A stretch of DNA of 60,274 nt from a virus: the IMG/VR virus record IMGVR_UViG_3300045988_172523; one strand, given 5' to 3'. The stretch's first letter is position 1; every line of letters starts with the position of its first letter. This document shows positions 13,167-58,800 of this stretch, piece after piece. The position numbers were made by a program, and so were the translations under genes. A model generated the notes under the pieces. That model did not search any database. It was given only the letters and a program-made list of their open reading frames with translations, and was not told the DNA's origin.

Positions 13167-13844
13167 ATGGCATCGCTTACTATAGATCAAATAAAACTAT
13201 TCGAAATACTTCACAACTCTCGTATGGAGGATTTTAAAACTTTCAACAAGAGATCTTACCGTGGTGTATGGAGTAGTATCATAGATAAATACCCAGAATC
13301 TGCACATTTTGTATATGAGTTATTGCAGAATGCAGATGATGCGGAAGCAACGGAAGTATATATAATTTTAAGACAAGACCAAATGCTGTTCAAGCATAAT
13401 GGAAAGAAGCATTTCAATATTACATTAGAAGATGAAGAGCCTGTTGGCGACATTAACTCCATCACAGGTATCGGTGACTCTTCAAAAATAAACACGCAGA
13501 ATAAAATTGGTAAATTTGGTGTTGGATTTAAAGCTGTATTCCAATATACTGATACGCCTGAGATTTACGATGATATTTTCAAATTTAAGATTGAGAACTA
13601 CATAGTACCAACACTTCTGCCATACGACCATCCAGAACGGCAGGAAGGTGAGACCTTGTTTGTGTTTCCTTTTAAGAATGGTGAACAATCCTACCAGGAT
13701 ATTTTGAGACGATTGGAGAATCTTAAGAATCCGATTCTTTTCTTACATAATATTCATCGTATAGTTTGGAGAATTGACAGAATAGAAAATGGTACTGGTA
13801 AAGAAACCAAGTATTCAAAAGAAATAATTGACTCTGAGGTATAA
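13167..13844 (+). pseudogene. 5-prime fragment of a sacsin-like GHKL ATPase / SF1 helicase fusion gene, cut by prophage insertion
   Basis: YELLQNADDAEA and GKFGVGFKAVFQYTD motifs (sacsin/Hsp90-like GHKL). The ORF ends two codons into GC-richer phage DNA. The frame continues at 55859. Confidence 0.8.
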
Positions 13845-13920
13845 TCCGCAAATCCAAATTTCCGCAGAATCCGAAACGAAGCGTTCGATTTTCAGGAAAA
13901 GGGACAAAACGAAGCGTTCA
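13840..13920. repeat. Prophage end (late-gene side) with two ACGAAGCGTT transposase-binding-like motifs (13876..13885, 13909..13918) and TCCGCA(A/G)AATCC x2
   Basis: The same core is found inverted at the other end (55745..55752, 55836..55845). Confidence 0.6.
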
Positions 13921-13942
13921 AAAAAGGAAAGCGCGCAACACT

Positions 13943-13984
13943 CAAAAAGCCGAAACAAAAGTTTTGTAATGACCTCTGTTTCGG
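13943..13984 (-). terminator. Rho-independent terminator (GCCGAAACA ... TGTTTCGGC, T run on minus strand)
   Basis: 9-bp arms at 13948-13956 and 13976-13984, with AAAAA at 13943-13947 on the plus strand. Lies downstream of the methyltransferase gene. Confidence 0.6.
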
Positions 13985-14077
13985 CTTTATAATTTCATAA
14001 AAAATGGCTTTATAACGGCATTAAAATAAGGCTCAAAATTTGGCCTTCTGCTTGAAAAATTGTATCTTTGTTCAGTG

Positions 14078-14938
14078 CTAAGCAGCTGTTTTATGAACTA
14101 ATTTTTCCTGTTTTTTATACAGCATCATGTCTGTATATTCGGCAGAATAATTCATGTGGGCATTGAATTCCTTTTTTGTACAACCCTCAAAAGGATTGCC
14201 AATGGTTCTGTTTGCTCCAATCCATTCACACAGTTCAAGTATGGAGGATTTATTGGATGTGAAATAAACGAAGGAATGCTTTTCGAGTATCTTTAAAACA
14301 TCCAAATAATCAGACAAGCGCCAATACATATTGTACGTACCAACATCAGTGGAAAGATAAGGCGGATCAATTAAAAAGACGACTCCGGGAACATCCTTAT
14401 ATTGGTTGAATACTGCTTTGTAGTCGCATGATACAATTTCAAGCCCTTTTAAGTAGTCAGAAGACTCCGGATAACCGGTCTTGCGAATGTTGTTATAAAG
14501 GACTTCCTTGCGCATTTCGGCTACAGACAATTTATACTTCATGGAGAACATTAGTGAGGATGATAAGGTTATAAAATCCACGTACCCAACATTTAGTTCT
14601 TCTTCCTCGATACGTTTAAAAATGCGTTCTCTAAGTTCCCCTTTAATTGGTTTATGTTTGGGTATCGAATTACCCACCAGCTCCCTAATATCGGCAAGCA
14701 GTTTATTTGTCTGTGGGATATTTTTCAGTCTGAACCGGTAGTTGTCGAAATCATTGTAGACAACAGTAGCATCGGGCTTGCTTCTTTTGGCTATATGCGA
14801 AAGAAGTCCGGAACCGCCAAACAAGTCCACAAACACGGTATCTTCAGGGAACTGTTCCAAAACTTTAATAAACTCTTTAGCAAACATTCTTTTTTGGCCT
14901 ACAAATGGCAGTGGTGCAGATAAATTCATATTCTTCAT
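14078..14938 (-). CDS. N6-adenine DNA methyltransferase (Dam-like, DPPY class)
   Basis: PFVGQKR, FGGSGLL (AdoMet motif I) and LIDPPYL (motif IV). Confidence 0.8.
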   Translation of the reverse strand: MKNMNLSAPLPFVGQKRMFAKEFIKVLEQFPEDTVFVDLFGGSGLLSHIAKRSKPDATVVYNDFDNYRFRLKNIPQTNKLLADIRELVGNSIPKHKPIKGELRERIFKRIEEEELNVGYVDFITLSSSLMFSMKYKLSVAEMRKEVLYNNIRKTGYPESSDYLKGLEIVSCDYKAVFNQYKDVPGVVFLIDPPYLSTDVGTYNMYWRLSDYLDVLKILEKHSFVYFTSNKSSILELCEWIGANRTIGNPFEGCTKKEFNAHMNYSAEYTDMMLYKKQEKLVHKTAA

Positions 14939-15573
14939 ACGTTCAAGTCAAATTTAATGTTTTCAACTCCGGATAACAGTTCCAGAGTCCGGTCAATGTT
15001 ATTTTCATATATATGCACATTTCCAAGGTCAAGGGTTATGGACTTCAGGGGAAGCTCCACCTGCCTTGCCATCAGATAAAGATGATAAATATCAGCCGGA
15101 AGCCCAAGGTTCGCATCAGAACTACGCTGATATGCAGATAGCACCAGTTCTCCCTCATCAATTTGGAACTGCACAAGGCTCAGGCAGGGTGCCTGGTTGC
15201 TTTCCACCCCGGTTTCTCCAAGAAACAGGACATAATTCTTGCTGTTGCGCTTTTCCCGGTTAATCCTGGTTATGAGGGGTGGAAGCTTTTCAAAGTAAGT
15301 TGGATAGCTGTTTACAAGGGTATGGCCGCAATAATCCCACCAGGTAATCCCTGCCTCTTTGTATTTTTCCACATCCCGGACTCCTTGCATAAACAGTTTC
15401 AATTCCTCTTTCAGCTTTTTCCTGGCTATCCCGTGGCTTTCAAATATGTCAAGTAAATCAGCGGGGGTCAGCATGAGCCTTTCGTTTAATAGATACTTGA
15501 TACGGCCTTTCCTATTGGTCTGGATTTTGCCCGTTTGGAGTATCTTGTCTAATGTCTGGTAATACTTATTCAT
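14935..15573 (-). CDS. Thymidylate synthase-family protein (short; possible pyrimidine C5-modifying enzyme)
   Basis: APCLSLVQFQ (catalytic Pro-Cys), AYQRSSDANLGLPADI and LGNVHIYENN match the order of the ThyA core motifs. Start chosen at MNKYYQ (15573) rather than the 15639 in the ORF track. Confidence 0.6.
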   Translation of the reverse strand: MNKYYQTLDKILQTGKIQTNRKGRIKYLLNERLMLTPADLLDIFESHGIARKKLKEELKLFMQGVRDVEKYKEAGITWWDYCGHTLVNSYPTYFEKLPPLITRINREKRNSKNYVLFLGETGVESNQAPCLSLVQFQIDEGELVLSAYQRSSDANLGLPADIYHLYLMARQVELPLKSITLDLGNVHIYENNIDRTLELLSGVENIKFDLNV

Positions 15574-15639
15574 GAGCTTTATTTTTGGTTGTACAAAGGT
15601 AGCTCTACCGGACAACACAAGACATCCCCGGCACATCAA

Positions 15640-15888
15640 TCACACTGCACCGAGCGTGCAGTGCTTTCCAAACCGTTTGATAACATCATACACCTTACGT
15701 TCGCTTACCGAATATTTATTTGCCAAAAACGCCACTGCATAAGTGGTCTTTTCACCTTGTTTTTTCATGACCTCATACTCCGTATATAAGTCTATGAATC
15801 GAAGGTCATCCTGCTTGCCGCCCAAACTTATAAGCATTTCAAGCGGTTCTCTGTTAAATTTAAGTGCTTCAAACAATGTCATATCCAA
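15640..15888 (-). CDS. Small HTH DNA-binding protein
   Basis: C-terminal AFLANKYSVSERKVYDVIKRF resembles an HTH. The gene has its own upstream region after a terminator. Confidence 0.4.
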   Translation of the reverse strand: MDMTLFEALKFNREPLEMLISLGGKQDDLRFIDLYTEYEVMKKQGEKTTYAVAFLANKYSVSERKVYDVIKRFGKHCTLGAV

Positions 15889-15931
15889 TCATTTTTGTAC
15901 TTTTGCAATGCCAATCATTTATTTAATGCGT

Positions 15932-15993
15932 AAAAACGCCACGAGAGTGCGGCAGAGGGCATTGCCCCCGGTCGCGCACTCTCGTGGCGTTTT
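15932..15993 (-). terminator. Strong 15-bp-stem hairpin (CGCCACGAGAGTGCG ... CGCACTCTCGTGGCG) flanked by A5 and T4; bidirectional terminator
   Basis: Arms at 15937-15951 and 15975-15989. Lies after the tail/DGR operon on the minus strand. Confidence 0.7.
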
Positions 15994-16067
15994 GTGTTAA
16001 TAAATGATTGGCGTCTATATTAACAGGCCGGGGGCTTTTTTTATCCCTCCCCCGAAGGGATTGTCAA

Positions 16068-16553
16068 TCACTCAATCCGATATAATTCCAAATTGAACTT
16101 ATCCTTTTTTTCCCAGCCTTCAGCCAGAACCTTCTGGATATACCTTACCGCTTTCGTATAGAAGTCTTTCAACTCATCTAACCGACTAAAAGTATGGTAT
16201 TCGGGCTGTTCATCCGAACCAAACTTGAATGTGACCGGTAGGGTTTCTCCGCCCGTCTGAACAGCCAGATCGTATGCTGCCTTATAGTTGTACTGGTTCT
16301 CCGTGGAAAGCCATACAGGGGCACCATTATAGGCGAATCCGGATAGGATAGCTGCATCAGTCTGGCTGTTATACCAGGACATAACCAATGTGCGGATTTC
16401 CTCATCAGTAGGCTTATGCCCGAACTCCTCTTCCATGTAGGAGGCAGAGCCGTTCTCTTTTTCCTGCACATCCCATCGGATGCGCCATTTGTCTTTAACC
16501 GGGTTCGTGCATTCCATCAGCGAAACCCCGGAACTTCCTTCAACTCTTCTCAT
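16068..16553 (-). CDS. Hypothetical phage protein (DUF4376-like), coupled to the RT gene
   Basis: 4-nt overlap with the RT stop. Resemblance to the DUF4376 phage family is by eye only. Confidence 0.5.
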   Translation of the reverse strand: MRRVEGSSGVSLMECTNPVKDKWRIRWDVQEKENGSASYMEEEFGHKPTDEEIRTLVMSWYNSQTDAAILSGFAYNGAPVWLSTENQYNYKAAYDLAVQTGGETLPVTFKFGSDEQPEYHTFSRLDELKDFYTKAVRYIQKVLAEGWEKKDKFNLELYRIE

Positions 16554-17851
16554 GTAAACACGTATTTGGTTCTACCTTTGCCGAATGTCTCTGTCTTGAT
16601 GGTCGTTTCAAACGGGAAACCATCCGGCATTTCCTTTACTTGTGCGAGAATATTCTTCATTTCCTCGCTGTTGGTGAAGAACTTCTTTGCCTCGCCGTTC
16701 ACTTCGATGGCCACAATACAGCGGTCTTCTCCCTGCTCGGTTTTGATACCGGTCTCAAAGTCCTTCACTACAATGGGTAAGTTTACCAGTTCCCGGATGC
16801 TTACCACCACTCCGGGGAATCGCTTTTTACCGTCTTCCGGCTTGTAAGCGACATTCAAGTCTTTAAAACTTCTCATTTCTTTGCCTGTTAATTTTTTAAA
16901 CAACTTATTACAGTCGGCGTGCTTCGTCATGCCGTAGAAACTGGCAATCAGTTCCCGCCGTCTTTTTCTCGATTTTACCTCGTGCATCTTCCGGGCAAAC
17001 CTCTGTTTGATGCGTTTCCGCAATCTTACATAGTCGGGACGGATAACATAGCCAAGGAAATCAATGCCTTCTTCTACAGGGAACACCCGTTCATTCGGCT
17101 TTATTTCCAAGTCTATTTTTCCCATTTGCCCGTGAACAGCATCACGAATCTTCCACAATTCCGCTTTCGTTTTACCGAGTACCAGTCCGTCATCGCAATA
17201 GCGATAGTAATAACGAACCCCGTACTTATCCTTCAGATAGTGGTCTAAAAATACAGACAGAAGCAGATTTCCTGCCCCTTGTGAACTGCGCAGTCCGAAA
17301 CTGATACCTTCCGGCAGCAGCTTAACAAACCGCTCCAACAAGACCAACAGCCTTTTGTCCTTGAACACCCTCCGGAAGCACCATATAACAAAGTCCTGCC
17401 GCGCATTGTCGTAAAACCTCCGGATGTCAAATTTGTATGCGTAAAGCGTGCCTTCCGGATCTTTTTGCAAATCGGTACGTATGCAGTTCATCAGGTCATG
17501 AGTACCGCGCCTTTTGATGCTTGCACCGGTTGTCCGGATATAACGTTTTTGCAGGTGGCGGTCCACCACATTCATGATGGCAAACACAGCGATGCGGTCT
17601 TTCATGGACAGGATCTGCAAAATACGTTTTTTACCGTATTCTTCAATTTCCCTCTCATGGTAGCCGCCCAGCCGGAATGAGCCGTCCGCAATGGAAGCCG
17701 TCAGTTCGGCGATAATCTTCTCCCTATGGGCAAGCAGGAATCGTCCCTGCCTTGACCTCTTACGATCGGTTCCGCGAAGTACCGAATCGAATGCCTCCGA
17801 CATATTGGAGTATTCGATGATTTCCTCGATAATATATCCTTCCCTGCGCAT
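16550..17851 (-). CDS. DGR-type reverse transcriptase with ~110-aa C-terminal extension
   Basis: KKRILQILSMKDRIAVFAIMNVV (RT motifs 1-2), GLRSSQ (GxxxSQ, DGR hallmark) and YCDDGLVLG (YxDD). The TR lies immediately upstream. Confidence 0.85.
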   Translation of the reverse strand: MRREGYIIEEIIEYSNMSEAFDSVLRGTDRKRSRQGRFLLAHREKIIAELTASIADGSFRLGGYHEREIEEYGKKRILQILSMKDRIAVFAIMNVVDRHLQKRYIRTTGASIKRRGTHDLMNCIRTDLQKDPEGTLYAYKFDIRRFYDNARQDFVIWCFRRVFKDKRLLVLLERFVKLLPEGISFGLRSSQGAGNLLLSVFLDHYLKDKYGVRYYYRYCDDGLVLGKTKAELWKIRDAVHGQMGKIDLEIKPNERVFPVEEGIDFLGYVIRPDYVRLRKRIKQRFARKMHEVKSRKRRRELIASFYGMTKHADCNKLFKKLTGKEMRSFKDLNVAYKPEDGKKRFPGVVVSIRELVNLPIVVKDFETGIKTEQGEDRCIVAIEVNGEAKKFFTNSEEMKNILAQVKEMPDGFPFETTIKTETFGKGRTKYVFT

Positions 17852-18054
17852 AAGCTATTGGTTAATAAACATGGAAGATGAGGGCCTTCCTTTCCCCGGG
17901 TCTGACTTCTTCGAACTGATAACAGCCTACCAAACTCCACCCGACGCGTGATTTTTCAGCTTTCCACCTTTTCTGGTGCTGTTGCTGTGGCTTGCTCCCC
18001 TCGGCACCGCTTCGGGGACACGTCCCCGCTGCTGTACGCCGATTTGTTAGATTT

Positions 18055-18167
18055 CCAGACGCGAGCCGATATTCGCATTCGTATTCGAAGCATCGTTATT
18101 CGCATTCGCATTCGACACACCGCCATTCGCATTCGCATTGTTGTACCCGCGATAGACCACACGGACT
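18055..18167 (-). repeat. DGR template repeat (TR), 113 nt, AAT/AAC-codon rich on the minus strand
   Basis: 113-nt homolog of 18662..18774. Non-coding, between the target gene and the RT. Would read ...YNNANANGGVSNANANNDASNTNANIG... Confidence 0.75.
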
Positions 18168-18227
18168 ATCGGGAAGCTCTACCAATTACAAAGGTACTTA
18201 TTTCAAGGCAAAAGAAATCTATAATGC

Positions 18228-18461
18228 TCAGAAGAATAACCATAACAGAGCAGCAAAAGCACCGCCAAACACGGTTAATCCCCAATCTATCCAGTCCCAA
18301 CAGCCTCCATGCTGCTTGTCCTTCAGTTCCAAGCATGAAGCCGCAACAACGCTTGCATACAGTGATACGCCTGGATTTATTGCCAACAAACCTACAAGGA
18401 ATCCGCCTAACAGATGCTTGCATCGGTTACTCTCTCTCAAAAAATCAATAACTGTTCCCAT
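18228..18461 (-). CDS. Small predicted membrane protein in the position normally occupied by DGR Avd
   Basis: 77 aa with hydrophobic segments (LLGGFLVGLLAI, WGLTVFGGAFAALLWLFF). Lies between the VR and the TR. Confidence 0.45.
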   Translation of the reverse strand: MGTVIDFLRESNRCKHLLGGFLVGLLAINPGVSLYASVVAASCLELKDKQHGGCWDWIDWGLTVFGGAFAALLWLFF

Positions 18462-18593
18462 AATGATGATGTCTTTAATTCTTAAAAAATTCGGCCGGCT
18501 TCGCCGGTATTTGAATACCTTTTAAACGGAATTCGGAAACCATCCGAATCCCGTTCTTTCGTTTTAGTCGCTTCGCTCCACGCTTTTTTGCGC

Positions 18594-21500
18594 TTACGCC
18601 ACCTCGCGTATCGCCTTATACGCTGCCACGCTTTGCGCCCGGACGATTTTGCCGCGGAAGGCCAGACGAGAACCGATGTACGTGCTCGCATTCGAGGAAT
18701 CGTTGTTCGCATTCGACATCGAAACACCGCCATACGGGTTCGCGTTGTGGCTGCCACGATAGACCACACGGACTGTGGCGGTGCTTATCCAATACTTATC
18801 GGAATAGTAGGTAGAAGAAGATCCGTTCAGATTACCCACCGGAACCATGTCCATATACTTGCCGTGTGCCACGCCTGTTATCCATTGGTCACTGGCCGTT
18901 TTGCCCTGCACCCAGCGCACCGTGCCGTCCGGCATCCAGATGCGCCATTTGCCCACGTTGCCGCTGTTGTTCGGCAGATCCACGCCGTCCATCATGTCAT
19001 ACTTGTTGCCGTAGATGTCCTCATAGCCCAGGCAGCAGATATTGTTCACCTGCACCACGGTCGCCTGCCCGTATTCGTCCCGGCTCTTATACCAGGCAAA
19101 CTGGTGCACCAGGTCGTCAACCAGCGAATTCGTAATTTTGTTGTTGATGGCATACGCTTCATCGTAGCCTATGGTGTCTGTCATCCCATGCTCTGCCGTT
19201 CCGCCTGTTGTTCGGTTGTTGGTATGCTGTCCGGCACCGCACTGTTCCTGCATGTCCCTGCGCCCGTACCGTGCATAGCTCAGATTCGCGATGCGGCTGT
19301 GCATCAGCGAGTCTATCTGCTGCATGCCACGCTGCTGGCTGTAATAGTGGAAGTCCGTCCACGTCATGCTGGCAGTGGTCGAGCCGCCGGTTATGCAGGC
19401 GCGCAACTTGCTGCCCACTACAGAACTGCCCACAACGGCACACAGATGCTCCTCATTGGGCACCCAATCCGGTTCCATGTCCTCTATCTTGTCGCTGTTG
19501 CTCAGCACCACGCAGTCAAACTCTGCCGTGTTCAGAATGGAGAAATGCAGAGCCGTCGCACGCTCCGGAACGTCTGCTATCAGATACATGCCGGCTTCAA
19601 ATTTCAAGCCGATGGTCGGCACCACGATGCTCTTCAGGATGTTTCCTGCATCATCCACAAACACACTGCCGATAAGCCCCGTTCCTGGAACGCTCGGGAA
19701 GCGCACGCGCTTGTAGCCGGCTACGTCCACCTTACATACCGAATAGGTCTTGTCAGTCGTATAGGATTCCATCAACGTAGGCTTCCCGGTCATAATTTTG
19801 CGTTCACCCAGCCAGCCGCCCTGCGTTTCCTTAATGGTATCCAGTGTCAGCACTGTCGCCTCCGGAACAGGGGGCATTTCGTCCTCCGGATAACTGCTAT
19901 AGCAGGCGTACTTCTTGTTGTTCAGATAATCGTTGATACCCTTGCTCCAGTAGAACGGCTCATACATCATCCAGTCTCCCTCGCTGCCGTCCAGCTTCGC
20001 CACCGTGCAGTCGTTCATATCCTCCGCATCGGCATAGAAGTTCGAGCTTTCGTCATGCAGGGGGAAATAGGTCATCTCCCCGTCCGGGTTGTTCACTTCC
20101 ACCTGCTGCCCGGCCATCTCCACCTTCCGGCTCGTAGGCATCTTGGTCACCTTGGCCAATACGCGGTGGCGCTTGGACAGGATGGCATTCACATGCCCGC
20201 TCATTTTGTACGTATTGCCGAATTTGTACCCCGTCTTGTTGTCCAGGTTCGAAACATTGGCATCGTCGGCCACACTGTCGTCAAACTCAATCATCGTATA
20301 GGGCGGCTGCTTGATGGTCAGTTCCGGATAACGGGCGGCATACTTCTCCAGTTCCTCATCGGCCAGATACTTCGTCAGGGTCAGCTTACCGCGAAGGCCC
20401 GAGTGGCGGTCATCCACCGCACCCGTCTGCGTGTACGTTCCGTAGTCAAAATACTTCTTCAGCAGGCTTCCGTCGTCTTCCCGGTCTATCTCCAGCACAA
20501 AGCGCTCCAGCTTGCCGCTGCCGTTCAGTTTGGCCTGATGCAGGCGTTCCAGCATGGCAAATCCGTCGATGCCGGGGCAGTTGGTATAGCGGTAGCCCCG
20601 CACGTTGTTGATGCCTTCCAGCACCAGGCCGCTGTCCTGCAGCTTGGTCAGATACTCCAGGAACAGTTCCTCAATCGTGTCCGGCAGGCATAACTGCACA
20701 ACGGGCGCACCGGTGGCCAGCTTCACGCGGGTCAGCCCCGTACCTCTCACGTCCAGTTTCTTCAGTCGCCCCTGCCAGCTCAGGTCCAAGGTGGCCACGT
20801 TTCCGTTGTCCCCGTTCCGGGCCAGCAGGTTATTCCGCATGTTCACTTCTTCCAGCAGCAGCATCCCGTTGGTCGAAGCCATGAACGAGCCGTTCCGGTA
20901 ACCGCTGGCTTTCTCCACGCTCATGTCCAGTTTGACCAACGAGGTCAACAGACCGAAGTTGAAGCCGATGGCGAACGCATCCTCATGCCACACCAGTTCC
21001 TTGATTTTGGCCGCACCCACTATCTTCAGCGGGTCGTTCTCACCGAAGGCACGGGTCAGCTGCAGGGAGTGGAGCACGTCCGCATCCACCACACCGCTGT
21101 CGGCCTGTACGCCATTGCTGGTAGATAACTGCACACGGTACGGGATGGTCAGCCGGTACTGCATCGGTTTCAGCTTATAAGCCTTGTCCAGCGATGCCGT
21201 ACTCTGGTAGAACTGGGCACCCAGCGTAGATACATAGCCGTACTCCACCTGCTTCAGGTCGTACCGGCGCTGGATGAAGTAGTTCCGGTGCGCTTTCAGC
21301 GAACCCTTCAGACCGTAGATCTGCGGATAGGTCTGTTTCGCACCGTCCGCACCCACCGGCATTTCGTTCAGGAACGGATACACATACTTGAATATGCCGG
21401 ACTTGTTATACAGGCGCGAGCACCACTTCTTCATCTGCTCGGTATCGAAGTGGTCAATGGCTTTCTGGATACTGAAGGCACTCATGAAGCTGGTTCCGCC

Positions 21501-47248: not shown

Positions 47249-47255
47249 TATTGTT

Positions 47256-47952: not shown

Positions 47953-47963
47953 ATCGTCTAATT

Positions 47964-49298: not shown

Positions 49299-50176
49299 GC
49301 TTGCATCCTCCTTAATTTTTCGATTTCGGTATATACGCGCCGCAAGCCGCCTCCGGTGCTGTGAACAATCTTGGCAATGTCGGCACCGTCCGGGGCATTG
49401 ATTTTGGCCACGATGGCAGCCTGTGCCTTCAGGAATTTTTCTCGTTCCTGTGCATCATCCGGGGTCACCTTGCTGTAGGAGTCACCGTAGCGACTCAACA
49501 TTTCGGTATAACCCACCTTCTTGCCTTCGATGGCGCGGTTGATCTTTTCCTTCAGCCCGTCTGCACCCATCATATACCACGCACAGCAGCGCTCGGTGGC
49601 GTTCCACAGGGCCTTCAGTTCAAGGAAGGCTTCATACTGCAGGTCCCCGGCTTCATCCAGAATAACCAGGGGCGTATCTATCGTGCGGAGGTAAGCCACC
49701 AGATCCTCATACACGTCGCTGTAGCGTCCGTTGCTGGTCACGCCGAATTCCTTGGCAATGTAGCGTATCAGCTTCAACTTGGTCTTCACTTGGCTGCAGT
49801 CCACATATACGGCGTGCTTGTGCTGCTTCACGTAAGCTTTGGCCGTAAAAGTCTTGCCGATATTGGGCATATCGCACAGGATGGCGCTCAGCCCGCTTCC
49901 CTGGCACACTTCCAGCTGCTTGCTCACAAACACATAGGTCGGGGTCTGTGCTGCCTGCCAGGGCATTTCCGTACGCAGTTGCACGCCCAGTCTTCGGGCT
50001 ATGCCTACCCAGTTGGCATCACTGACCTGCTTTTCATAATTGCCCCGCTTGATGGTATTGTACACACTGGGGGCTATGCCCAGTGCCGTAGCATGACGGT
50101 TGTCACTGGGATAATTTTCACGGTCGGCGGCTATCGCTGCCACAATACGTTGCTTTACTTCATTTGTTATTTCCAT
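49295..50176 (-). CDS. MuB-like AAA+ transposition ATPase
   Basis: N-terminal HTH-like region, Walker A MPNIGKT and Walker B LVILDEAGD. Lies directly downstream of the transposase. Confidence 0.75.
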   Translation of the reverse strand: MEITNEVKQRIVAAIAADRENYPSDNRHATALGIAPSVYNTIKRGNYEKQVSDANWVGIARRLGVQLRTEMPWQAAQTPTYVFVSKQLEVCQGSGLSAILCDMPNIGKTFTAKAYVKQHKHAVYVDCSQVKTKLKLIRYIAKEFGVTSNGRYSDVYEDLVAYLRTIDTPLVILDEAGDLQYEAFLELKALWNATERCCAWYMMGADGLKEKINRAIEGKKVGYTEMLSRYGDSYSKVTPDDAQEREKFLKAQAAIVAKINAPDGADIAKIVHSTGGGLRRVYTEIEKLRRMQA

Positions 50177-50212
50177 TTGAATGCTGTTTTAAATTCGTTC
50201 TAACGTCGTTAA

Positions 50213-52321
50213 TTATATCTTGGCTACTGCATCATGCTCGAAGGCACTGATGTCCATATAGGCTGAGTAATCTTCTTCCTCGGCTTGTGCAGGAAGGGGA
50301 ACGGCTTCCGCCTGTACCTCTGTTATCAGCTTTGCTTCCTCTTTGGCAAGGATACCCACACGCTTGATCTTTCCGTCCTTCATCATCTTGTCGAACTTGG
50401 CTACATACTTGGCCTGTTCGGTATAGGCTGCCTTGTCGTACTCGGTCTGCTCGGCGGTGGCTTCATTGTAACGTTTCACCTTCTGGCAGGTGTCTATTAA
50501 CCGGCCATGCTGATATACATAAATTTCCTGCACATTACCGTCTGCGCCTGCCAGCCAATAGGCATCCACTTGGTAGTTGCGCGGTTCCAACCGGTCTATT
50601 ACGTTCGGGTCGGACAGACGATATACTTCATGGTTTACCGTCAAATAGGCATTCTGCCGGATGGACGTTTCGGTATGCTCACCGATATACCGGTACAACA
50701 CCGCTTTATCCCAAGGACGAAGATCCGGGTTCTGTGTTCCACAAAGCACATCCCAACGCGTCATGCCAGGATATTTCTTTTGATTGGGGTGCGGCTGGTT
50801 GTTCCATTCTTTGATGGAAGCAATATCATCAGCCACAAGCTGCTCGTAAGTATAGGTAGGCACCCGATAGGTGTTGTTCAGTTCGTCATATACCTTTTCC
50901 ACTTTCGGACGGTTGGCTTCCAGTTTGGCCCACCAGCGGCCGATATTCTGCTGAGTCCGTTTTTCCACGCTGTACTTCTTGCCGCGGTTCACGTGCTCCT
51001 GGCGTTTCTCACGGCTGTTGCCGGGGTTGCACCAGTGTATGAGGGGAAAAACCACACCGGCTTGCATCAGGCCGTCTGTGAATTTGTTCACCAGATGGTG
51101 TTCCACCTCTATCTGTGCCGGCATATACCAGCCGTTCTGGTCGATGGTCTGAAACATGTTCCTCATACAATCCAGAAACAGGTCCTTGTTCTTGTTCCGG
51201 TTGTAGGCGTATCCTACAACGGCACCGCTTGCCACGTCGCTTACATAATAGGCATGCACATAGTTCCCATCGCGCATAGGTCGCGGAAGGTCTCGGTCGT
51301 CAGCGGAAATCTTGCTGAATGCATATTGCGGCAGGCTGCGCAGATGGTAGGGGCGCTGGGAGTTGTTGAAGTTCCATTGGGTCTGATGAACTTTGGCCAG
51401 CAAGGCAATGGTCTTGGGCTGTTTCAATATGTTGGCTATCGTAGCTTTGCTCAAAACCACCGGATTCCCGCTTTTGTCAGTGAAGTCTTCAGGGTTGAAG
51501 ATTTCACCCGTTTCCGGATCGTAGGCTTCGCAGTTCCCTGTCACAAACTGGTTATACATTTCTGCCACTACGGTATCATAAGGGTGCTCCGCTTGGGCGG
51601 CAAGACCACGGACCAGGTCTTCAATCTTATAAGTCACCTTCCTTCGGTTCTGGTTCATGAACTTGCGGCTGATAAGGCTTTCATAGCCGTTGGACTTGAA
51701 GTCATTCACACGCTTCTTGAAGCGGTTGGAACTCACGGGCAGGGTATGCCCGAACTCTGCCTGATAGTAGCTGATGGCTCCTGCCAGCTCGCCCCAGTTC
51801 ACCGGACCGGCCTTCATGGCCTTGCGCATAAAGGTGGCATCGTCCATCGCACGAAGCACGGCTTCAATGACCGAAGCGTTCACCGTATATTCCTGGATGT
51901 GTTCCGGCGGCAGGGTGTCGCCGTTGTCAAAGCGGAACCGGGTGTAGAATTCCCGGGCTTTCGCATCGATGTGGTAATGACCGATAAACCAGTTTCTCAA
52001 AATATCTTCTTTCATTTCTCCGTATTTTAATTTTATCCGTTCCTGAAATCGCAGGGGCATGGTGGCAATCTCTATCAGTGCATAACTTCCAAGCCCCTTG
52101 CCTTGTCGCACTACGTTGATTTCTTTCCTGGCCGCCAGCTTCTTGTAATTGGGTACCGACATGATGGGAGCAAGTTCTTCCATGGAAAGCATGGAGGGAT
52201 GATGTCCTCGCAGCGCACGGCTCTTGCTGTAGTCGGCCTTTCCGTCTTCCCGAATCACCGGGCGGTCATCGTAGGTCAAATCCTTGTATGATATGCACAA
52301 TATCTTTCCATAATACTCCAT
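50213..52321 (-). CDS. MuA-like DDE transposase (702 aa)
   Basis: The largest early gene. Candidate DDE residues lie in SADDRDL, YYVSDVASG and PGNSREKRQEH contexts. Paired with the MuB-like ATPase and the repeated end motifs. Confidence 0.75.
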   Translation of the reverse strand: MEYYGKILCISYKDLTYDDRPVIREDGKADYSKSRALRGHHPSMLSMEELAPIMSVPNYKKLAARKEINVVRQGKGLGSYALIEIATMPLRFQERIKLKYGEMKEDILRNWFIGHYHIDAKAREFYTRFRFDNGDTLPPEHIQEYTVNASVIEAVLRAMDDATFMRKAMKAGPVNWGELAGAISYYQAEFGHTLPVSSNRFKKRVNDFKSNGYESLISRKFMNQNRRKVTYKIEDLVRGLAAQAEHPYDTVVAEMYNQFVTGNCEAYDPETGEIFNPEDFTDKSGNPVVLSKATIANILKQPKTIALLAKVHQTQWNFNNSQRPYHLRSLPQYAFSKISADDRDLPRPMRDGNYVHAYYVSDVASGAVVGYAYNRNKNKDLFLDCMRNMFQTIDQNGWYMPAQIEVEHHLVNKFTDGLMQAGVVFPLIHWCNPGNSREKRQEHVNRGKKYSVEKRTQQNIGRWWAKLEANRPKVEKVYDELNNTYRVPTYTYEQLVADDIASIKEWNNQPHPNQKKYPGMTRWDVLCGTQNPDLRPWDKAVLYRYIGEHTETSIRQNAYLTVNHEVYRLSDPNVIDRLEPRNYQVDAYWLAGADGNVQEIYVYQHGRLIDTCQKVKRYNEATAEQTEYDKAAYTEQAKYVAKFDKMMKDGKIKRVGILAKEEAKLITEVQAEAVPLPAQAEEEDYSAYMDISAFEHDAVAKI

Positions 52322-52332
52322 TTCATTGCTGT

Positions 52333-52758
52333 TTATAAGGCAGCTGCCATCTGTTGGGTCTCGTGCTGCAGCTGCATGAAGTCTGATACAAACTCACATT
52401 GGTAGGTTTCGGTCCGTTTTCCGTCCACGTACACGTCCACATCGTTGGTCTTCCGGTGGACTACCAGCTTTACACGGGGACCGAAGGTGCAGGTCATGGT
52501 ATGCTCACACTCCTCGAAGGTGGTTTCGCAGTTCGGAATGAAGTTCCCGTCAGTCAGTTTGCCGCCTCGCTTCAGGGCAAGAGTGCGTATCCGGCGCGCC
52601 TGATCGCTGTCACGGACAAAATTCAGTGCTTGCCACACAGCCTGACGGCTGCATCCGAATGTCTTCATCAAGAAGGTCTTGGTCTCGTTATCTGTCAAAA
52701 TCTGCTTTCTCATATCGTCATACTTTTTAATCGTTATCGTTCGTTCAAAGGTTTTCAA
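52333..52758 (-). CDS. Ner-like/HTH early protein
   Basis: FLMKTFGCSRQAVWQALNF HTH-like segment. Lies immediately upstream of the transposase. Confidence 0.45.
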   Translation of the reverse strand: MKTFERTITIKKYDDMRKQILTDNETKTFLMKTFGCSRQAVWQALNFVRDSDQARRIRTLALKRGGKLTDGNFIPNCETTFEECEHTMTCTFGPRVKLVVHRKTNDVDVYVDGKRTETYQCEFVSDFMQLQHETQQMAAAL

Positions 52759-52774
52759 CGGCTTCCGCTATTTC

Positions 52775-53041
52775 CTAATCACCCGTCAGTATTTCATGAA
52801 GGCGTGTCCCTTTCTGCAGTTCTTCGACCAGCACCTGCATCGCTTCCTCACACACACAGCTCACATTCTCTATCACCCGGTAGGCATCCGAGTTGCTTAT
52901 CTCATCCTCCGTCATGAATTGTCCAACCAGCTCCATCGCCTGGTCGGCAATATTCTGCGTATGTGCCGTACTGCCTATCATCGTGCGCAACTTCTGTTTG
53001 AACAGACTCTCTGCTGTTCTCGGATTGAAATTCTTTGCCAT
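52775..53041 (-). CDS. Hypothetical early protein
   Basis: ORF in the early operon. Confidence 0.4.
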   Translation of the reverse strand: MAKNFNPRTAESLFKQKLRTMIGSTAHTQNIADQAMELVGQFMTEDEISNSDAYRVIENVSCVCEEAMQVLVEELQKGTRLHEILTGD

Positions 53042-53200
53042 AACTCTAAATTTTAAAAGTTTATATCGTGGGGCGCGGGGAATCGAACCCCGGCGGCTTT
53101 CTACGCTTTCTTATTTCGCTTTCTCATTTTCTATTTACCAACTTTCCGGCCGTGCCTGCCGCCCCTGCCCGTCTTTCCGGGCTGCCAGTTATCCGGCAAT

Positions 53201-53623
53201 CTATTTGCCTTGTTCTTCTATCATCGAAAGGACAACCTTCCTGTCTTCATCCCAAAGCGGAAGCCCCAATTCGATGGTTCGTTTCACCACTTCCACCTCA
53301 CCGGCCAGCCTTACCGCTTCTTTGCGGAAATCGGTATCGTCATACGCATGTGCCTTGCCAATCAGAAAGTCGGCAAGGTCGCTGTTACGTTGCCGCATGG
53401 ACTCCTTCAGGTTGGCGTTTGTGTCCTCCAACACCCCTAAGCGAATGCCGATTTCTTGGAGCGACCGCCGGATTCCTCCGCTCGTTGGGTCGTTCATCTC
53501 TTTAAACTCCTTGCAGAAGTCATCCTTATACATATCTGTGGCCATATAAAGCCGGTCTATAATGGCAAATGTTTCTGCATTTACCGCGCATTGGGTTCTT
53601 TCCTCAAATTCTTGCTGTGTCAT
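53201..53623 (-). CDS. Hypothetical early protein
   Basis: ORF in the early operon. Confidence 0.4.
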   Translation of the reverse strand: MTQQEFEERTQCAVNAETFAIIDRLYMATDMYKDDFCKEFKEMNDPTSGGIRRSLQEIGIRLGVLEDTNANLKESMRQRNSDLADFLIGKAHAYDDTDFRKEAVRLAGEVEVVKRTIELGLPLWDEDRKVVLSMIEEQGK

Positions 53624-53644
53624 AATCTCACTTATTTTATTGTA

Positions 53645-53860
53645 TTATTCTGCATCTTCAATTTTGAAAGAAAAGCACTTATCCGCCAATACTTTTTTTA
53701 CAAAGTCTAAGTCGTATCTATCAGCCGAAAAGAAAACTGCCTGATAATCTACACTGGGATAAGCCTTGATTGCTGTTGTATCCACCATCTTCTTGACCAG
53801 CCCGTAAAGAGTTTCGGCGGTCTCAGCTGTTGCTTGAGCTATAATTACTTTTGCTTTCAT
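53645..53860 (-). CDS. First early-operon protein (hypothetical)
   Basis: ORF divergent from the repressor gene. Confidence 0.4.
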   Translation of the reverse strand: MKAKVIIAQATAETAETLYGLVKKMVDTTAIKAYPSVDYQAVFFSADRYDLDFVKKVLADKCFSFKIEDAE

Positions 53861-53902
53861 TTACTTTAATCCTTAAAATTCGCTAATCACACGCCTTTTT
53901 TG

Positions 53903-53950
53903 TATATTTGGCGCGCTGTTTACATCTTAAACACGCTGCAAATATAGTGA
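53903..53950. promoter_or_regulatory. Repressor/early switch region: plus-strand TATATTTG (53903..53910) and minus-strand TATATTTG (53939..53946) boxes
   Basis: Two oppositely oriented TAnnTTTG matches lie in the 152-nt gap between divergent genes. Confidence 0.5.
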
Positions 53951-54012
53951 CTTCTCACGAATAAACAAATAAAATATCGAGAAATGTCACGACTAATTTA
54001 AATTATTAAGCT

Positions 54013-54780
54013 ATGAAGTCAACAATTCACGATAGAATAAGTGAGATAGTAGAACATTTTGGCAACGGAAAGAATACTGTAATCGCTTCGAAATTAGGCG
54101 TAAGCGAAGGTAATATACGAGGATATGTAAAGAATGTCATGCCAAAGCATGATTTTTTGGAGAAAATAGTGAGATGTTTCGATGTAGATTCAACTTGGCT
54201 TCTTACAGGTATTGGAACTATGCTTAAAGAGGATTCTAACAGCATTCAAACAACAAAAGAATCAACCCCTTCTGAGCTACCTGCTACTTCTGATGACGCA
54301 TCTGCCGACACACCTGGCACCGCCCATGCACCCGAAGCCGTCGCTGTTTCAATTTCCCAAAAAGAAAAGCAGACCATGAAGCCAATCCCGTTGGTCACGG
54401 AAACCGCAGCAGCTGGTTTTGGCAACTGTGACTTTGCCATCGCAGAACAGGATGTCAAGGATTACTATGTCATCCCGAAATTCCGCTACAGCCGAGTCGA
54501 TTTCATGATCGAAATATCCGGACTATCCATGCACCCTCATTTCAATCCCGGAGACATCATAGCCTGCACCATCCTCACCGATCGAAAGTTCCTTCAGTGG
54601 AACAAGTGCCACGTCATTGCCACTCGCGAGCAAGGCATTCTTGTCAAACGTCTTATGCCAAGCAAGCAGAAAAACTGCCTCACTGCCATATCCGACAACA
54701 AGGACTACCCTCCATTCGATATTCCGCTGGATGAAATCACAGGCATCGCACTTGTGGTCGGATCTGTCAGCCTCGAATAA
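54013..54780 (+). CDS. Phage repressor, HTH plus S24 (LexA/CI-like) autopeptidase domain
   Basis: N-terminal HTH (VIASKLGVSEGNIRGYV). C-terminal GLSMHPHFNPGD (Ser) and ILVKRL (Lys). Confidence 0.8.
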   Translation: MKSTIHDRISEIVEHFGNGKNTVIASKLGVSEGNIRGYVKNVMPKHDFLEKIVRCFDVDSTWLLTGIGTMLKEDSNSIQTTKESTPSELPATSDDASADTPGTAHAPEAVAVSISQKEKQTMKPIPLVTETAAAGFGNCDFAIAEQDVKDYYVIPKFRYSRVDFMIEISGLSMHPHFNPGDIIACTILTDRKFLQWNKCHVIATREQGILVKRLMPSKQKNCLTAISDNKDYPPFDIPLDEITGIALVVGSVSLE

Positions 54781-55025
54781 GCCTTCCACACTCAGGCATC
54801 AACACATAGGCGCATTTCACACGATACACGCAGCCGCCTCCCAAACACGGCGCACGCACACTCTTTGGAAGGCTATTTCAGGATACCAGAGCGTAAAATC
54901 GCTGAAAATCAAAGGTTTCATGCTTATATATATAATGTATGCCAACAAATAAATGTCGTTTTTCCTATCTGAAAACAGCAAAAAACGGCACTTATTTACA
55001 TTGGCAACCCTTTTTCCTATTTCGG

Positions 55026-55119
55026 GTGTACCCTCTAAAAACCGAAAAAGTAACCCTAAAAGTAACCCTAAACTCATTAAAGTAGTAACCCTAAACAGTA
55101 ACCGTAATAGTAACCCTAA
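55026..55119 (+). repeat. Array of five phased GTAACC(C/G)TAA direct repeats plus one degenerate copy
   Basis: Copies at 55050, 55062, 55085, 55098 and 55110, spaced 12, 23, 13 and 12 nt. A degenerate GTACCCTCTAA sits at 55028. Confidence 0.75.
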
Positions 55120-55230
55120 ACTCAAAATTACCACCCGTAAGGGCATAAAAAAAGGGGAGCCGTAAGCTCCCCAATCAGCATTCAAAGAAATAACGCCTAC
55201 AAGCCTTTCTAACGGCGTTATTATGTCGTT

Positions 55231-55464
55231 CTAACCATTGCCCTTACTACCGCCAGAAATGAGCGTAGATTGCTTAATTATAGCCTTTTTCGTGCATATT
55301 GTGCCGTTACCAGACAGCCCGGCATGAAGCAGGTAATTCTTGGTTGCCCCCACCTGATCTGCCGTCAGAACCGTATAAACAGCCGATATACTGCTGAAAT
55401 ACCAATCTTTCTGCTTCGTCCCGTCTATTTTATGCAGCAAATGCACATGAATCACTTTTGCCAT
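55231..55464 (-). CDS. Small hypothetical protein (77 aa from MAKVIHVHLL)
   Basis: Start chosen downstream of the TATATTTGCAGC promoter box at 55480..55491. Confidence 0.45.
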   Translation of the reverse strand: MAKVIHVHLLHKIDGTKQKDWYFSSISAVYTVLTADQVGATKNYLLHAGLSGNGTICTKKAIIKQSTLISGGSKGNG

Positions 55465-55479
55465 ATTCGTTTCTATTAT

Positions 55480-55491
55480 GCTGCAAATATA
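55480..55491 (-). promoter_or_regulatory. -7 promoter box TATATTTGCAGC (minus strand)
   Basis: The same 12-mer as at 53935..53946 and 44869..44880. Lies about 20 nt upstream of the ATG at 55464. Confidence 0.45.
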
Positions 55492-55734
55492 CCAAATAAT
55501 GTCTATTTGGAAGAATTTCAAGGCACTATATTTTAAAATAGGCACAAAAAACGGCCACACAGCCGTTCACACCATCATATAACAAAATCCATCAACCCAG
55601 CCACAAAACGGCCACACAGCCGAAAATAAAACCCTTCCAGGCCGTTTTAGCCCCATCTGCAAGCCCCATGTAAAGCAATCGCCCAAAATTCCGAGGAAAA
55701 GCCCCCATTTTGTAAAAGGCATGTAAAAATCATG

Positions 55735-55858
55735 TAAAAGAAAACCGCTTCGAAATATTCAGCCCATTTTCCCGAACATGCCTAAATCATTTGGCTTTCA
55801 AAGCCTTTCACCCATTTTTCCCGACCATTGAAAAAACCGCTTCGTTCTATGCCCCATA
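55735..55858. repeat. Prophage end (early-gene side) with inverted CGAAGCGG motifs (55745..55752, 55836..55845) and CCCATTTT(T)CCCGA x2
   Basis: Reverse complements match the ACGAAGCG core at the other end. Confidence 0.6.
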
Positions 55859-58800
55859 GAGGATTATGATGATAATATAACTATGGAACATTATGTCCTC
55901 CATGAGCCATCAAAGACCAGCAATGTGTTCTTGTTTTCAGAAAAAATTGTAATAACAAACGATGGTAAAAGTACATAACACCTAATAAATGTTGGTTATT
56001 ACTATGATTCTGAAAAGAAAAAGTTGATAACTAATATTACTCAGAATATTTATTGTTTTTTCCCAACAAAGGAGTCATTTAAAACATGCTTTGTTTCACA
56101 TGCTCCATTTCTTCTAACAGATAATCGACAGAATCTAAAACCAAATGAAAACATAAATGAAGAACTTATCAACCTTTTGGCAGAATTAGCTGCAAAGGCT
56201 GTAGTGCATCTTCGTGATTATGGTGTAAAACACAAGAAATTGCTTATAGATGAAAATATTACGGAGATTATTCCTAACTATGTGCGGCATTATTGGCAAT
56301 CTCTTGATGAAAGATTCGAGGAACCAATTGTTAATGCGTTCAAGAAACTACTTGAAACAGAAAGAATCCTGTTGTCAAGAAATGGAAAGTATCTATCTAT
56401 GAGGGAAGCATATAAAGGTTCACCAAGAGAACTCGTAGAATTATTATCTCAAAAACAGTTGGTAATGCTCACAAATAAAGCCTATAAGCATGATTACTAT
56501 AATAATAAAGAAGATAAAATGCTGAATCCTAAGGATGTTGATTTTTTGAAATGGGAGTTGGCACAGAATATCATTAAACAGGATAACAATATATACAACA
56601 AACTTGGAGAATATACTTCAGAGAGCTTTGCCAGGGATATTACTCTTGACTTTATGAAAGCACAGGATTTGAAATGGGTCACAAGGATGTACACATTTCT
56701 TAGAACTGCAGCACCAAAATTGTGGAAGTTGACGGATAAAGATAGTAATAAATTAGCATCGTCTCTTCCTTTCAGAGAGGCTCCCATCATCAAAACACAA
56801 AAAGGCGAATGGGTAAAGCCTTTTGTTGATGTGACTTCACCAAATATTTATCTGCCTTTAAAGGATGACAATAAATCCGATTATAATTTTGTTGCTAATG
56901 AGTATCTACAGAACGAAATGGCTAAAAAGTTCTTTATGGAACTTGATTTGAAGGAACCAGATGAGTATGACTATATACGTCAGGTAATTCTTGGAAAGTT
57001 TGAGAGTGATGAAATAGATATTGAGAATGACGAGTTGTCTTCTGACTTTATGGTTATTTTACGTTATTACCAAAAGGTTAAAGAAAAGTATCAAGGTCAG
57101 AAACTTATACAAGAGGTTAAAGAGAAAATTTTGTTAGTTGATAAGGATGGCATATTATGTAGGTCGCATGAATTGTATTTTCACAGTCATAATCTTGAAC
57201 TTTATCTCTCTGGGGTTAACGACATCCACTATATTGATTTAGATATTTATAAGGATGCTACTAAAGAGTTTGGAATAGAAACTGTAAGAATGTTTTTATT
57301 AATGCTTGGAGTAAAATTGTATCCGAAAATAGAAAGTTTTATGCGCTGGGATAAATCTTATCTTAGTGAAAGATTGAAAAGTCAAATTTTAATAACAAAC
57401 ATATATGATTATCGTTTTGAAGACTATGCTTTGCAAGGATTTAACGAATTCAAAAAACATAAAATACATAAAGAAACATCTCATTATCTATGGAATGTAG
57501 TATTACCAGCTTTGAAATTTGGTAATTACGAACATATGGCCATGATATATCGTAGGAAGTATGCCCGTTCCTATGATACAGTTTATTATGATTCAACATT
57601 CAAGGATTCCCTTCAATACAGCAAGTGGATTCTTGATAAAAATGGCAATGTCCTGTCTTCTAATGAAATTGCTCTTGAAGACCTTGATTCTGAGTATGAC
57701 CGTAATAATGGCTTAATTCAATTTCTTGGTATAGAGAAACGTGAAAAAAGCATTTTAGAATTAGGTGGCACTGAGGAACAACAGGAACAATTGGATTTGG
57801 GGAAACGCGTCAAGCAACTTGCTGGAGATGACTTGACTGAAGAAGAAATAATTCAAGCCTTATCTTATGCCAAAGCTCAGAAAAAAGCTAAAAAACATAT
57901 TTATGAAGAAACTGAAAATCCTACCATCAGTGATAATGGTTCAGATGAAAAAGATTACTCTGACATTGATAGAAAACCACGAGAACGAAAAAACAGTCAT
58001 AATTCAACTAATTTAGGCGATGAAAGTAATGATTCTTCTGACATAAAGAAATATAATGAAGATGATGATTTTGATTTGGATACACCGTTCAATCGTGAGG
58101 AACTCAGGAAGACCGAACTTTCAGATATGTTTATCAACAATAATCATAAACCTCCTGTAAAGAAAGAAAAGGAGGTTACTGATGAAGTACAGGCAGATGA
58201 ATTAAAACAAAAACTGCTTGAGCAGGAGGAAAAGCATAACAAAATAATTGAACTTCGAGAGGCAGCTTCAAATGCAGAAAGGTATTCAAAAGAGTGGTTC
58301 GATGCATTGATAGAATTGGAGTATCGTGGCGGCACAGAAGAAACAAAGGGAGACTTCGGTAAATCCATCAATATCACGTTTAACTCAGTGAACAAAGAGC
58401 AAGGATCTGAGCGTATCTATGTACTCAGAAATCCTTCTCGTAGTATTCCTCTATGGCTTGAAGAAATTGGAGATATTGAGATTAAATTTACCTTCTCAGA
58501 TCGTGATGAATTGAAACTAAAATTTGAAGTTGCAAATGTACGTGAAAATAGTTTACGTCTAAAAGCAAGCAAGGCCTTTGAAGATGTCTTGAACAAAATT
58601 GCTTGGAATAAGTGTACTAAGGCATCGATAACTTTGAAAAATCAGATAGACCTTATGGGTAAACTACGCAGTGCATTTAACGGTCTAGGTTTGGAGGATG
58701 GATTTAATCTTAAAGAAAACCTTGATGATAACCTGAAGTTTATATTTGGTCCTCCAGAAACTGGTAAAACAACAACTCTTGCCAAGAAGATTATTGGAAT

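Follow-up and report, generated by a model that had tools for sequence, protein, structure and literature searches.

The window analysed here, IMG/VR virus record IMGVR_UViG_3300045988_172523 at its full length of 60,274 nucleotides, contains a prophage of 42,019 bp and 52.1% GC at positions 13840..55858, inserted into a gene for a 1643-residue protein with a sacsin-type ATPase domain and a superfamily 1 (SF1) helicase. We read this element, with a probability of roughly 0.93, as an apparently complete temperate, Mu-style transposable prophage of siphovirus type and a member of Candidatus (Ca.) Mubacviridae, which entered by DDE transposition into an already truncated gene. The phage lies on the minus strand, and the end that is the left one in the Mu convention, with the repressor and the transposase, is at the right side of the window.

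The limits of the prophage are fixed by comparison with other contigs. A 28-mer from its left end occurs in 68 IMG/VR contigs and a 25-mer from its right end in 48, and these yield 66 distinct host flanks on the left and 45 on the right, starting exactly outside TATAATCC... and ...CCCCATA. Because the DNA outside differs in nearly every contig that carries the phage ends, the phage proper is 13840..55858, with the termini 5'-TATAATCC...CCCCATA-3', i.e., TA...TA. Here and below, junctions of the window-type phage are those of contigs L018–L133, and junctions of phages of the type of Hankyphage p00 (BK010646) are those of L135–L231. A second copy with both ends on one contig (L085/L102) measures 42,163 bp end to end, compared with 42,019 bp in the window. 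The abrupt switch between AT-rich and GC-rich DNA that the initial annotation described at both edges of the insert is seen in the composition profile (GC fraction 0.32–0.41 up to 14 kb, 0.44–0.61 over most of 15–53 kb and 0.32–0.36 past 56 kb), and the host open reading frame (ORF) 13167..13844 terminates two codons inside the GC-rich DNA (GAG GTA TAA). The motifs first noticed twice at each end, in inverted orientation, were likewise found: AAACGAAGCGTTC at 13874 and 13907 on the plus strand and AAAACCGCTTCG, in inverted orientation relative to it, at 55741 and 55833. The repeats at both ends contain CGAAGCG, related AACGAWGCG motifs are present in the ends of p00, and these repeats are candidate binding sites of the transposase.

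The site without the phage was recovered from human-gut metagenomes, where a 29-mer spanning the reconstructed junction is exact in 17 contigs. These are colinear with 1..13839 joined to 55863..60274, 13 of them at 99.3–99.96% identity and the other four at 96–98%, the alignment of L005 spanning 10.6 kb, and an uninterrupted ORF of 1643 amino acids (aa) is found in L002, L005, L007 and L016. The 29-mer had no exact match in a scan of genome contigs, and the species representatives of GTDB do not carry this allele. Remoter uninterrupted homologues, 48–51% identical and colinear over residues 1–716, occur in Muribaculaceae and Bacteroidales metagenome-assembled genomes (MAGs), and ~1,300 database proteins match the gene at E ≤1e-10. 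Since uninterrupted colinear homologues exist, at about 100% and at ~50% identity, the two ORFs in the window are halves of one gene, and the intact 1643-aa alleles show that they are not naturally separate genes. Deletion of 13840..55862 fuses them in frame (...KEIIDSE followed by DYDDNITMEHYVL...), as had been proposed; what the proposed continuous frame had missed is an in-frame TAA in the downstream half (Table 1), beyond which the long ORF 56024..60121 continues in the same frame. The insertion had also been termed frame-preserving, and the frame is indeed restored on deletion, but this carries no information, because deleting any insertion together with one duplication copy restores the original sequence.

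The empty site reads CTCTGAGGATTATG, and the occupied site reads CTCTGAGG, then the phage from TATAATCC to CCCCATA, then GAGGATTATG. The duplication is exactly 4 bp, because neither TGAGG nor GAGGA is duplicated relative to the empty site. Both GAGG copies lie where the initial annotation had placed them; its other form of the duplication, TGAGG/AGAGG with one mismatch, does not stand, and a 5-bp duplication, be it TGAGG/AGAGG or GAGGT/GAGGA, is ruled out by the empty site and the paired junctions. Apart from GAGG, window-type insertions are flanked by GATG (the same-contig pair L085/L102) and by AATT, TTAC, AATA and TACC (same-sample pairs). The same bias is seen in the four bases that end the left flanks and the four that begin the right flanks: position 2 is A in 64% and 67%, position 3 is T in 73% and 58%, and position 4 is preferentially G. 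A 4-nt register would produce just such an agreement between the flanks. The p00-type phages served as a control and gave CTTT and GATG in same-contig pairs and CAAC and GATT in same-sample pairs, all of 4 bp with the fifth base mismatched. The weak N-A-T-G target preference is found in both lineages, as are TA ends, the p00 termini being 5'-TAAGGGG...GGATTTA-3'. In contrast to the published 5 bp, transposases of the hankyphage type apparently duplicate 4 bp, with TA at the termini.

The 702-aa protein assigned as the transposase matches phrog_310, "transposase", at 1.2e-38 in PHROG. An AlphaFold model built on an alignment of 70 homologues (mean predicted local distance difference test, pLDDT, 85.7) has an RNase-H-like β-β-β-α-β-α-β-α core at residues 338–456 followed by a β-barrel. 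In Foldseek searches against the PDB the model matched TnsB of Tn7 and of CRISPR-associated transposons (CAST) at 8e-15 to 5e-13 and the Mu transpososome (4fcy) at 2e-12, with further matches to the MuA core (1bcm/1bco), IstA and retroviral integrases, and the predicted fold is that of MuA/TnsB. D341, D342, E407, K439 and E442 are invariant among the 70 homologues, which are 25–81% identical; D341/D342, E407 and E442 are candidate catalytic residues, with a spacing that fits a D...(D/E)...35...E triad. The best structural matches, Tn7/CAST TnsB (PDB codes 9bw1, 8aa5 and 7svw), share the RNase-H-like core, the β-barrel and an AAA+ partner with the window protein, but are only 10–12% identical to it, and the window element is a phage without TnsA, TnsC, TnsD or a CRISPR targeting module. 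Protein identical to this transposase is annotated as hypothetical in Phocaeicola vulgatus (WP_087394471.1) and is encoded on 583 contigs; Odoribacter and Bacteroides have near-identical ones.

The remaining early genes largely agree with what had been read from the DNA: in addition to the MuA-like transposase, which is supported by PHROG and by fold and not by Pfam, the MuB-like ATPase, the S24 repressor and the DUF3164 protein have domain or PHROG matches (Table 1). The exception is the "GemA-like" gene, for which no match was obtained even at E up to 5. No integrase, resolvase or recombinase domain was found in the 40 ORFs of the insert, which has no att system either. The interpretation as a transposable prophage has thus withstood each observation that the initial annotation named as able to overturn it, namely the lack of an uninterrupted homologue, an integrase/att system, or two naturally separate genes. 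The helix-turn-helix (HTH) S24-peptidase repressor is potentially self-cleaving and has no detected p00 homologue; the control of immunity and induction in the window lineage probably differs from the RepC_HP system of p00.

Entry into the gene was by DDE transposition and not by site-specific recombination. The 702-aa transposase would bind the repeated CGAAGCG-containing sites in the inverted ends, aided by the MuB-like AAA+ ATPase, and the TA-3' termini would be joined to a target cut with a 4-nt stagger, the repair of which would leave the GAGG duplication. The target in this scheme is codon 224/225 of the 1643-aa sacsin/TmtA-like and SF1 helicase gene, situated in a putative defence island with HipBA and a Mks/Wadjet-like condensin operon; the allele that was hit already had a premature TAA at codon 263, and the lysogen lineage with this exact insertion has spread among people since.

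Several points weigh against this account. The transposase has no significant match in Pfam, rve being weak in two of the 70 homologues, and searches of the PDB by sequence or with a 70-sequence profile returned noise only, so that its predicted MuA-like status rests on the PHROG profile and the modelled fold. At the second catalytic position Glu appears to take the place of Asp. TA...TA termini in place of TG...CA, and a duplication of 4 instead of 5 bp, speak against a Mu-like element. The 4-bp measurements also disagree with those of Benler et al. 2018 (PMC6199706), who reported "5 bp direct repeats" for Hankyphage, the sequences of which are not given, and four of the six window-type and two of the four p00-type duplication pairs were inferred from different contigs of the same sample. 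Finally, one assembled contig cannot show that the window copy is still active.

The most durable of the other explanations is that the insertion inactivated a working defence gene and was perhaps selected by freeing the phage or other mobile elements from restriction. The target does resemble defence proteins. Pfam finds the sacsin-type ATPase SACS (PF25794) at residues 37–134 and the SF1 helicase domains AAA_11, AAA_12 and AAA_19 at residues 1177–1553; in PADLOC, TmtA of Tiamat matches residues 42–830 of 1643 at 1.4e-46, i.e., the N-terminal ~800 residues, and MkoA of Mokosh matches the C-terminal helicase at 6.8e-26, while no single PADLOC-DB model covers the whole protein. A literature search on Tiamat/TmtA returned unrelated papers only. 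As the gene also sits in an island with HipBA and the Mks/Wadjet-like operon, it can fairly be described, judged from these resemblances, as a candidate defence gene within a defence island, and the insertion shortens the product to 225 aa.

The history of the locus is nevertheless at odds with a knock-out by the phage. The in-frame TAA at codon 263, 38 codons past the junction, is GAA in intact alleles, including all 13 probe-matching empty-site contigs of the 29-mer set, and it is present in copies without the phage as well. Exact matches to the 1365-aa downstream ORF are indexed in 119 collection blocks, and six of its seven listed places are free of the phage (L241–L246; one of them is the NCBI assembly GCA_039760425.1); these six have both the empty-site 29-mer and the TAA, and gene calling splits the gene into 262 aa and 1365 aa. 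Three allelic states therefore coexist in gut metagenomes, i.e., intact, TAA only, and TAA with phage (the window and L247), and every occupied copy that can be checked has the TAA. Decay after insertion as the origin of the TAA is ruled out by the phage-free TAA alleles, and parsimony over the three states places the nonsense mutation first and the phage second, so that the phage landed in an already truncated allele. In the window, the Tiamat-like gene is doubly disrupted. The premature TAA in phage-free copies weakens the implied story of a prophage that knocked out a defence gene, and because the allele was already truncated, nothing argues any longer for a functional or selected knock-out, provided that the split form is inactive. 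Apart from the weak N-A-T-G preference, the more than 100 other insertion sites have no target in common. That the insertion inactivated a working defence gene, whether or not it was selected for this, is accordingly improbable in our estimate, and the insertion is best read as a quasi-random, probably neutral landing, neither targeted nor selected. Nine contigs from at least six other samples encode exactly the same truncated product of 225 aa, whose last codons come from the phage, with left-junction DNA 100% identical in L237–L240 and the right junction recurring in L247; because the same junction recurs in at least six other samples, a lysogen lineage with this insertion circulates among people.

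The initial annotation was reminded of the published Hankyphage, and alignment to p00 shows that the window phage is a syntenic relative but not the same phage. The gene order of p00 is the reverse complement of that of the insert, with synteny along the whole length, and 32 of the 40 ORFs match p00 colinearly by tblastn at 27–88% amino-acid identity (structural proteins 55–88%, reverse transcriptase 76%, target of the diversity-generating retroelement (DGR) 43%, MuB 28%; transposase 28% over the first 242 residues only). The two phages have similar GC contents (52.1% and 53.0%), and homology is recognisable over the outermost 20 nt at each end. They are alike in length (~42–43 kb), in GC content (~53%), in the 4-bp duplication as measured here, in gut Bacteroidales hosts, and in gene order, which runs over a MuA/MuB early region, Mu-type head, ClpP protease, capsid, tail, a DGR target of 2,200 aa, reverse transcriptase, thymidylate synthase and N6-methyltransferase.

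That the insert is Hankyphage itself, of the same species or genus as p00, might be argued from this shared length, GC content, gene order and DGR, from the homologous ends and from the DGR region, the only one covered by megablast (73–75% identity). By VIRIDIC-like blastn, however, 55% of the genome aligns at ~70% identity, which gives a similarity of ~0.39 to BK010646, compared with cut-offs of 70% intergenomic similarity for a genus (PMC12135933) and 95% for a species. The first 8 kb, with the repressor, transposase and MuB, has essentially no nucleotide similarity to p00; transposase and MuB are ~28% identical, the S24 repressor has no p00 counterpart, and the resident template repeat of the DGR is of another type. 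Identity with Hankyphage at either rank is very unlikely. The closest GenBank phage records are unannotated gut-virome fragments, MT836083 (91.5%), MT836398 (91.6%) and MT836131 (83%), and no named phage with this type of transposase is present among the GenBank phage records.

Ca. Mubacviridae (SA-vFAM1) has been described as a hankyphage-inclusive family of Bacteroidales phages (bioRxiv 10.64898/2026.05.11.724261). The features stated for it are all present in the window phage, i.e., MuA/MuB, a DGR, genes for nucleotide metabolism and modification, a TerS-TerL-adaptor and head module, and Bacteroidales hosts, and because of these defining features the window phage is, by these stated features, a new member of this known family; under the family's blastn criterion for 'hanky-like' phages, a coverage of p00 of at least 10%, its classification could go either way. 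Replicative transposition, a CI-like master repressor and headful packaging with host DNA are experimental results for p00-type hankyphages only (PMC12135933), and by analogy with these the window phage may be presumed to be inducible and to transpose replicatively today.

Compared with Escherichia phage Mu, the window phage has the same repressor-transposase-MuB order at one end, a DDE transposase with the same predicted fold and no integrase; like Mu, it inserts quasi-randomly, makes a short duplication, and has Mu-type portal, F, gp36 and G-like head genes and, at the far end, a gene for DNA modification. It differs in that Mu makes a 5-bp duplication and has TG...CA termini, a contractile tail and a G-segment invertase, whereas the window phage has 4 bp, TA termini, siphovirus-type tail genes and a DGR for tail-fibre variation; moreover, the window transposase is without detectable similarity to the Pfam models for Mu or rve. 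The initial picture of a ~42-kb transposable siphovirus-type phage with a DGR was borne out by the 42,019-bp length, the many junctions and the repeats of the retroelement. A defective prophage remnant or an assembly chimera of phage and host contigs, which could be suspected since the window is a single metagenome-assembled contig and the particles that p00-type hankyphages produce in the laboratory are defective (PMC12135933), has hardly any probability left in view of the duplication at both junctions, the same left junction in nine contigs of independent assemblies and right junction in L247, an intact counterpart in the insert for every p00 gene, the transposase identical to a protein on 583 contigs, and the other same-contig copy of 42,163 bp.

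The DGR in the insert, also noticed initially, consists of a reverse transcriptase (RT), a template repeat (TR) and a variable repeat (VR) at the 3' end of the target gene (Table 1). The RT-3 RNA motif between TR and RT is, from its position, probably the DGR spacer RNA, and an ORF of 77–85 aa between VR and TR (a gene call in L234), which has no Pfam match, is a candidate for Avd. In the DGR of Bordetella phage BPP-1, an RT and a TR accompany a VR at the 3' end of the tail-fibre gene, and a GC-rich element follows the VR. The window phage is like BPP-1 in this layout, the GC-rich stretch just downstream of the VR being common to the window and p00 lineages, and in the adenine-specific differences of its sister copies; it is unlike BPP-1 in that the window VR matches a foreign type of TR and not the resident one.

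The resident TR and the VR show 24 differences over 112 nt, only 7 of them at TR adenines, which is not an adenine-only pattern. Against the p00-type TR (GGCAACAACAACGCGAACCCGAATGG), the window VR differs at 7 adenines and one boundary base only, and all 15 of its diagnostic non-adenine sites are in the p00 state. In twelve other copies of the lineage the VRs match the resident TR, and the changes in most are adenine-only (A/non-A 15/0, 14/0, 12/0, 7/0 and 3/0). The sister copy L020, 96.7% identical over 2.4 kb, differs only inside a TR-homologous tract of ~95 nt, both VR flanks being identical, and a VR identical to that of the window occurs in L234, which carries the same insertion and comes from another sample. 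This suggests that the window VR sequence was derived from a p00-type TR rather than from the resident one. Even odds may be given to a rewriting of the VR in trans by the DGR of a co-resident p00-type hankyphage, i.e., mutagenic retrohoming across lineages; short-patch gene conversion with a p00-type VR is the alternative and would leave the same footprint. A degenerate DGR, as an account of TR/VR mismatches that are not A-specific, was replaced by the foreign-TR explanation. Two further contigs (L181 and L207) combine a p00-type right end with a TR that is of the window-like type at 13 of 15 diagnostic sites, which suggests that the lineages exchange DGR cassettes. In L049 the VR is followed directly by the sequence that lies downstream of the TR, owing either to a deletion between the two repeats or to a collapse in the assembly.

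Table 1 Features of the window (positions in the window; a dot marks a feature given without strand)
Feature	Position	Strand	Basis and remarks
Target gene, 5' fragment	13167..13839	+	Codons 1–224 plus 1 nt; sacsin/TmtA-like ATPase N-terminus; ORF runs to 13844
Left GAGG duplication copy	13836..13839	.	Empty site has a single GAGG
Two direct copies of AAACGAAGCGTTC	13874-13886 and 13907-13919	+	Candidate transposase-binding sites, DGR-side end
D12-class N6-adenine DNA methyltransferase	14078..14938	-	Pfam PF02086; 67% to p00 homologue
Thymidylate-synthase-like protein	14935..15639	-	Pfam PF00303; 81% to p00
DGR reverse transcriptase	16550..17851	-	Pfam RVT_1; 76% to p00 RT
RT-3 RNA motif RF03068	17897..18044	-	Rfam 150 bits, gathering score 40.5; between TR and RT
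Template repeat (TR), resident type	18055..18186	-	97–100% identical in ~40 other copies of the lineage
DGR target protein, 2185 aa, tail fibre-like	18594..25151	-	43% to p00 ORF 31489-38226, which carries the p00 VR
Variable repeat (VR)	18662..18793	-	C-terminus of the 2185-aa tail protein
Tail module	26404..34204	-	56–81% identical to p00 genes so annotated
Minor tail protein	26404-30099	-	p00 annotation
Hub-like protein	30121-30585	-	p00 annotation
Tape-measure protein	30587-34204	-	p00 annotation
Amidase lysin	36719-37183	-	Pfam Amidase_2
Major capsid protein	37190-38389	-	p00 homology
ClpP-type prohead protease	38397-39506	-	CLP_protease 1e-33
Mu-type head/packaging module	39641..45984	+	Small terminase, large terminase, gp36-like, Mu portal, Mu F-like, virion morphogenesis protein, one more ORF
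DUF3164 early protein	46371..47057	-	Pfam PF11363
MuB-like AAA+ transposition ATPase	49295..50176	-	Pfam AAA_22 8.8e-13; phrog_296 'DNA transposition protein' 8e-37
DDE-type transposase, 702 aa, MuA/TnsB fold (predicted)	50213..52321	-	phrog_310 and predicted fold
HTH and S24-peptidase (LexA/CI-like) repressor, 255 aa	54013..54780	+	Pfam Peptidase_S24; phrog_4; divergent from early operon
Two copies of CGAAGCGGTTTT	55741-55752 and 55833-55844	-	Inverted relative to the DGR-side end
Right GAGG duplication copy	55859..55862	.	Empty site has a single GAGG
Target gene, 3' part	55863..60121	+	Codons 225–1643, including C-terminal SF1 helicase (AAA_11/AAA_12)
In-frame TAA	55976..55978	+	Codon 263; also in phage-free copies

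The Mu-type head module that had been read from the insert was recovered by Pfam (Portal_Mu at 7e-81, Phage_Mu_F, Phage_Mu_Gp36 and Phage_tail_S); its terminases are assigned via the p00 annotation, to which they are 58–61% identical. In the region 36719..39506, with the lysin, capsid and protease, the genes are 65–88% identical to p00 and there is a weak BACON match. A G-like morphogenesis protein and a weak Mor-like match are also present in the insert.

Proteins of the host flanks are exact matches to P. vulgatus entries, and going by these the host is P. vulgatus-like. One flank protein (window 798-1322; OKZ12613.1) is labelled "MAG: Bacteroides oleiciplenus" despite the P. vulgatus matches, a conflict that may reflect a binning or labelling error, or a mobile island. 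Upstream of the target gene are two metallophosphoesterases, HipB/HipA (3713-5520) and a truncated ParA. They are accompanied by the Mks/Wadjet-like operon (5566-11895), made up of a 398-aa protein without matches, MksE (PF21980), a 1220-aa DUF3584/JetC-like structural maintenance of chromosomes (SMC) protein and a 297-aa DUF7281 protein; PADLOC barely recognises this operon, with JetC at 1.4e-4 and over the N-terminus only. No tRNA genes were found in the window.

The first 164 bp of the window (1-164) are a perfect inverted copy of 60111-60274, and in longer contigs (L004, L016 and L241, in the last at 7200-8105) a gene for a 301-aa DDE_Tnp_1/DDE_Tnp_1_3 (IS982-like) transposase lies past the right end. 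The 18-kb island and the prophage are bracketed by inverted copies of this insertion sequence (IS), like a composite transposon, and the assembly stops at the window ends probably because the two inverted IS copies bound the contig.

Taken as a whole, the window holds a well-documented natural prophage of the hankyphage family, for which both junctions, the empty site and the pre-insertion allele have been recovered, and a fairly ordinary example of a known family. It is a useful reference for annotating prophages of Bacteroidales, since their transposase escapes Pfam, and, because the gene was already truncated here, it cautions against reading a prophage in a defence gene as counter-defence. 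The 4-bp duplication and the TA...TA ends of both lineages matter for the geometry of a MuA/TnsB-like transpososome that is very divergent. The foreign-TR signature in the VR, if true, would mean that, among co-resident phages, the DGR of one can diversify the receptor-binding protein of another.

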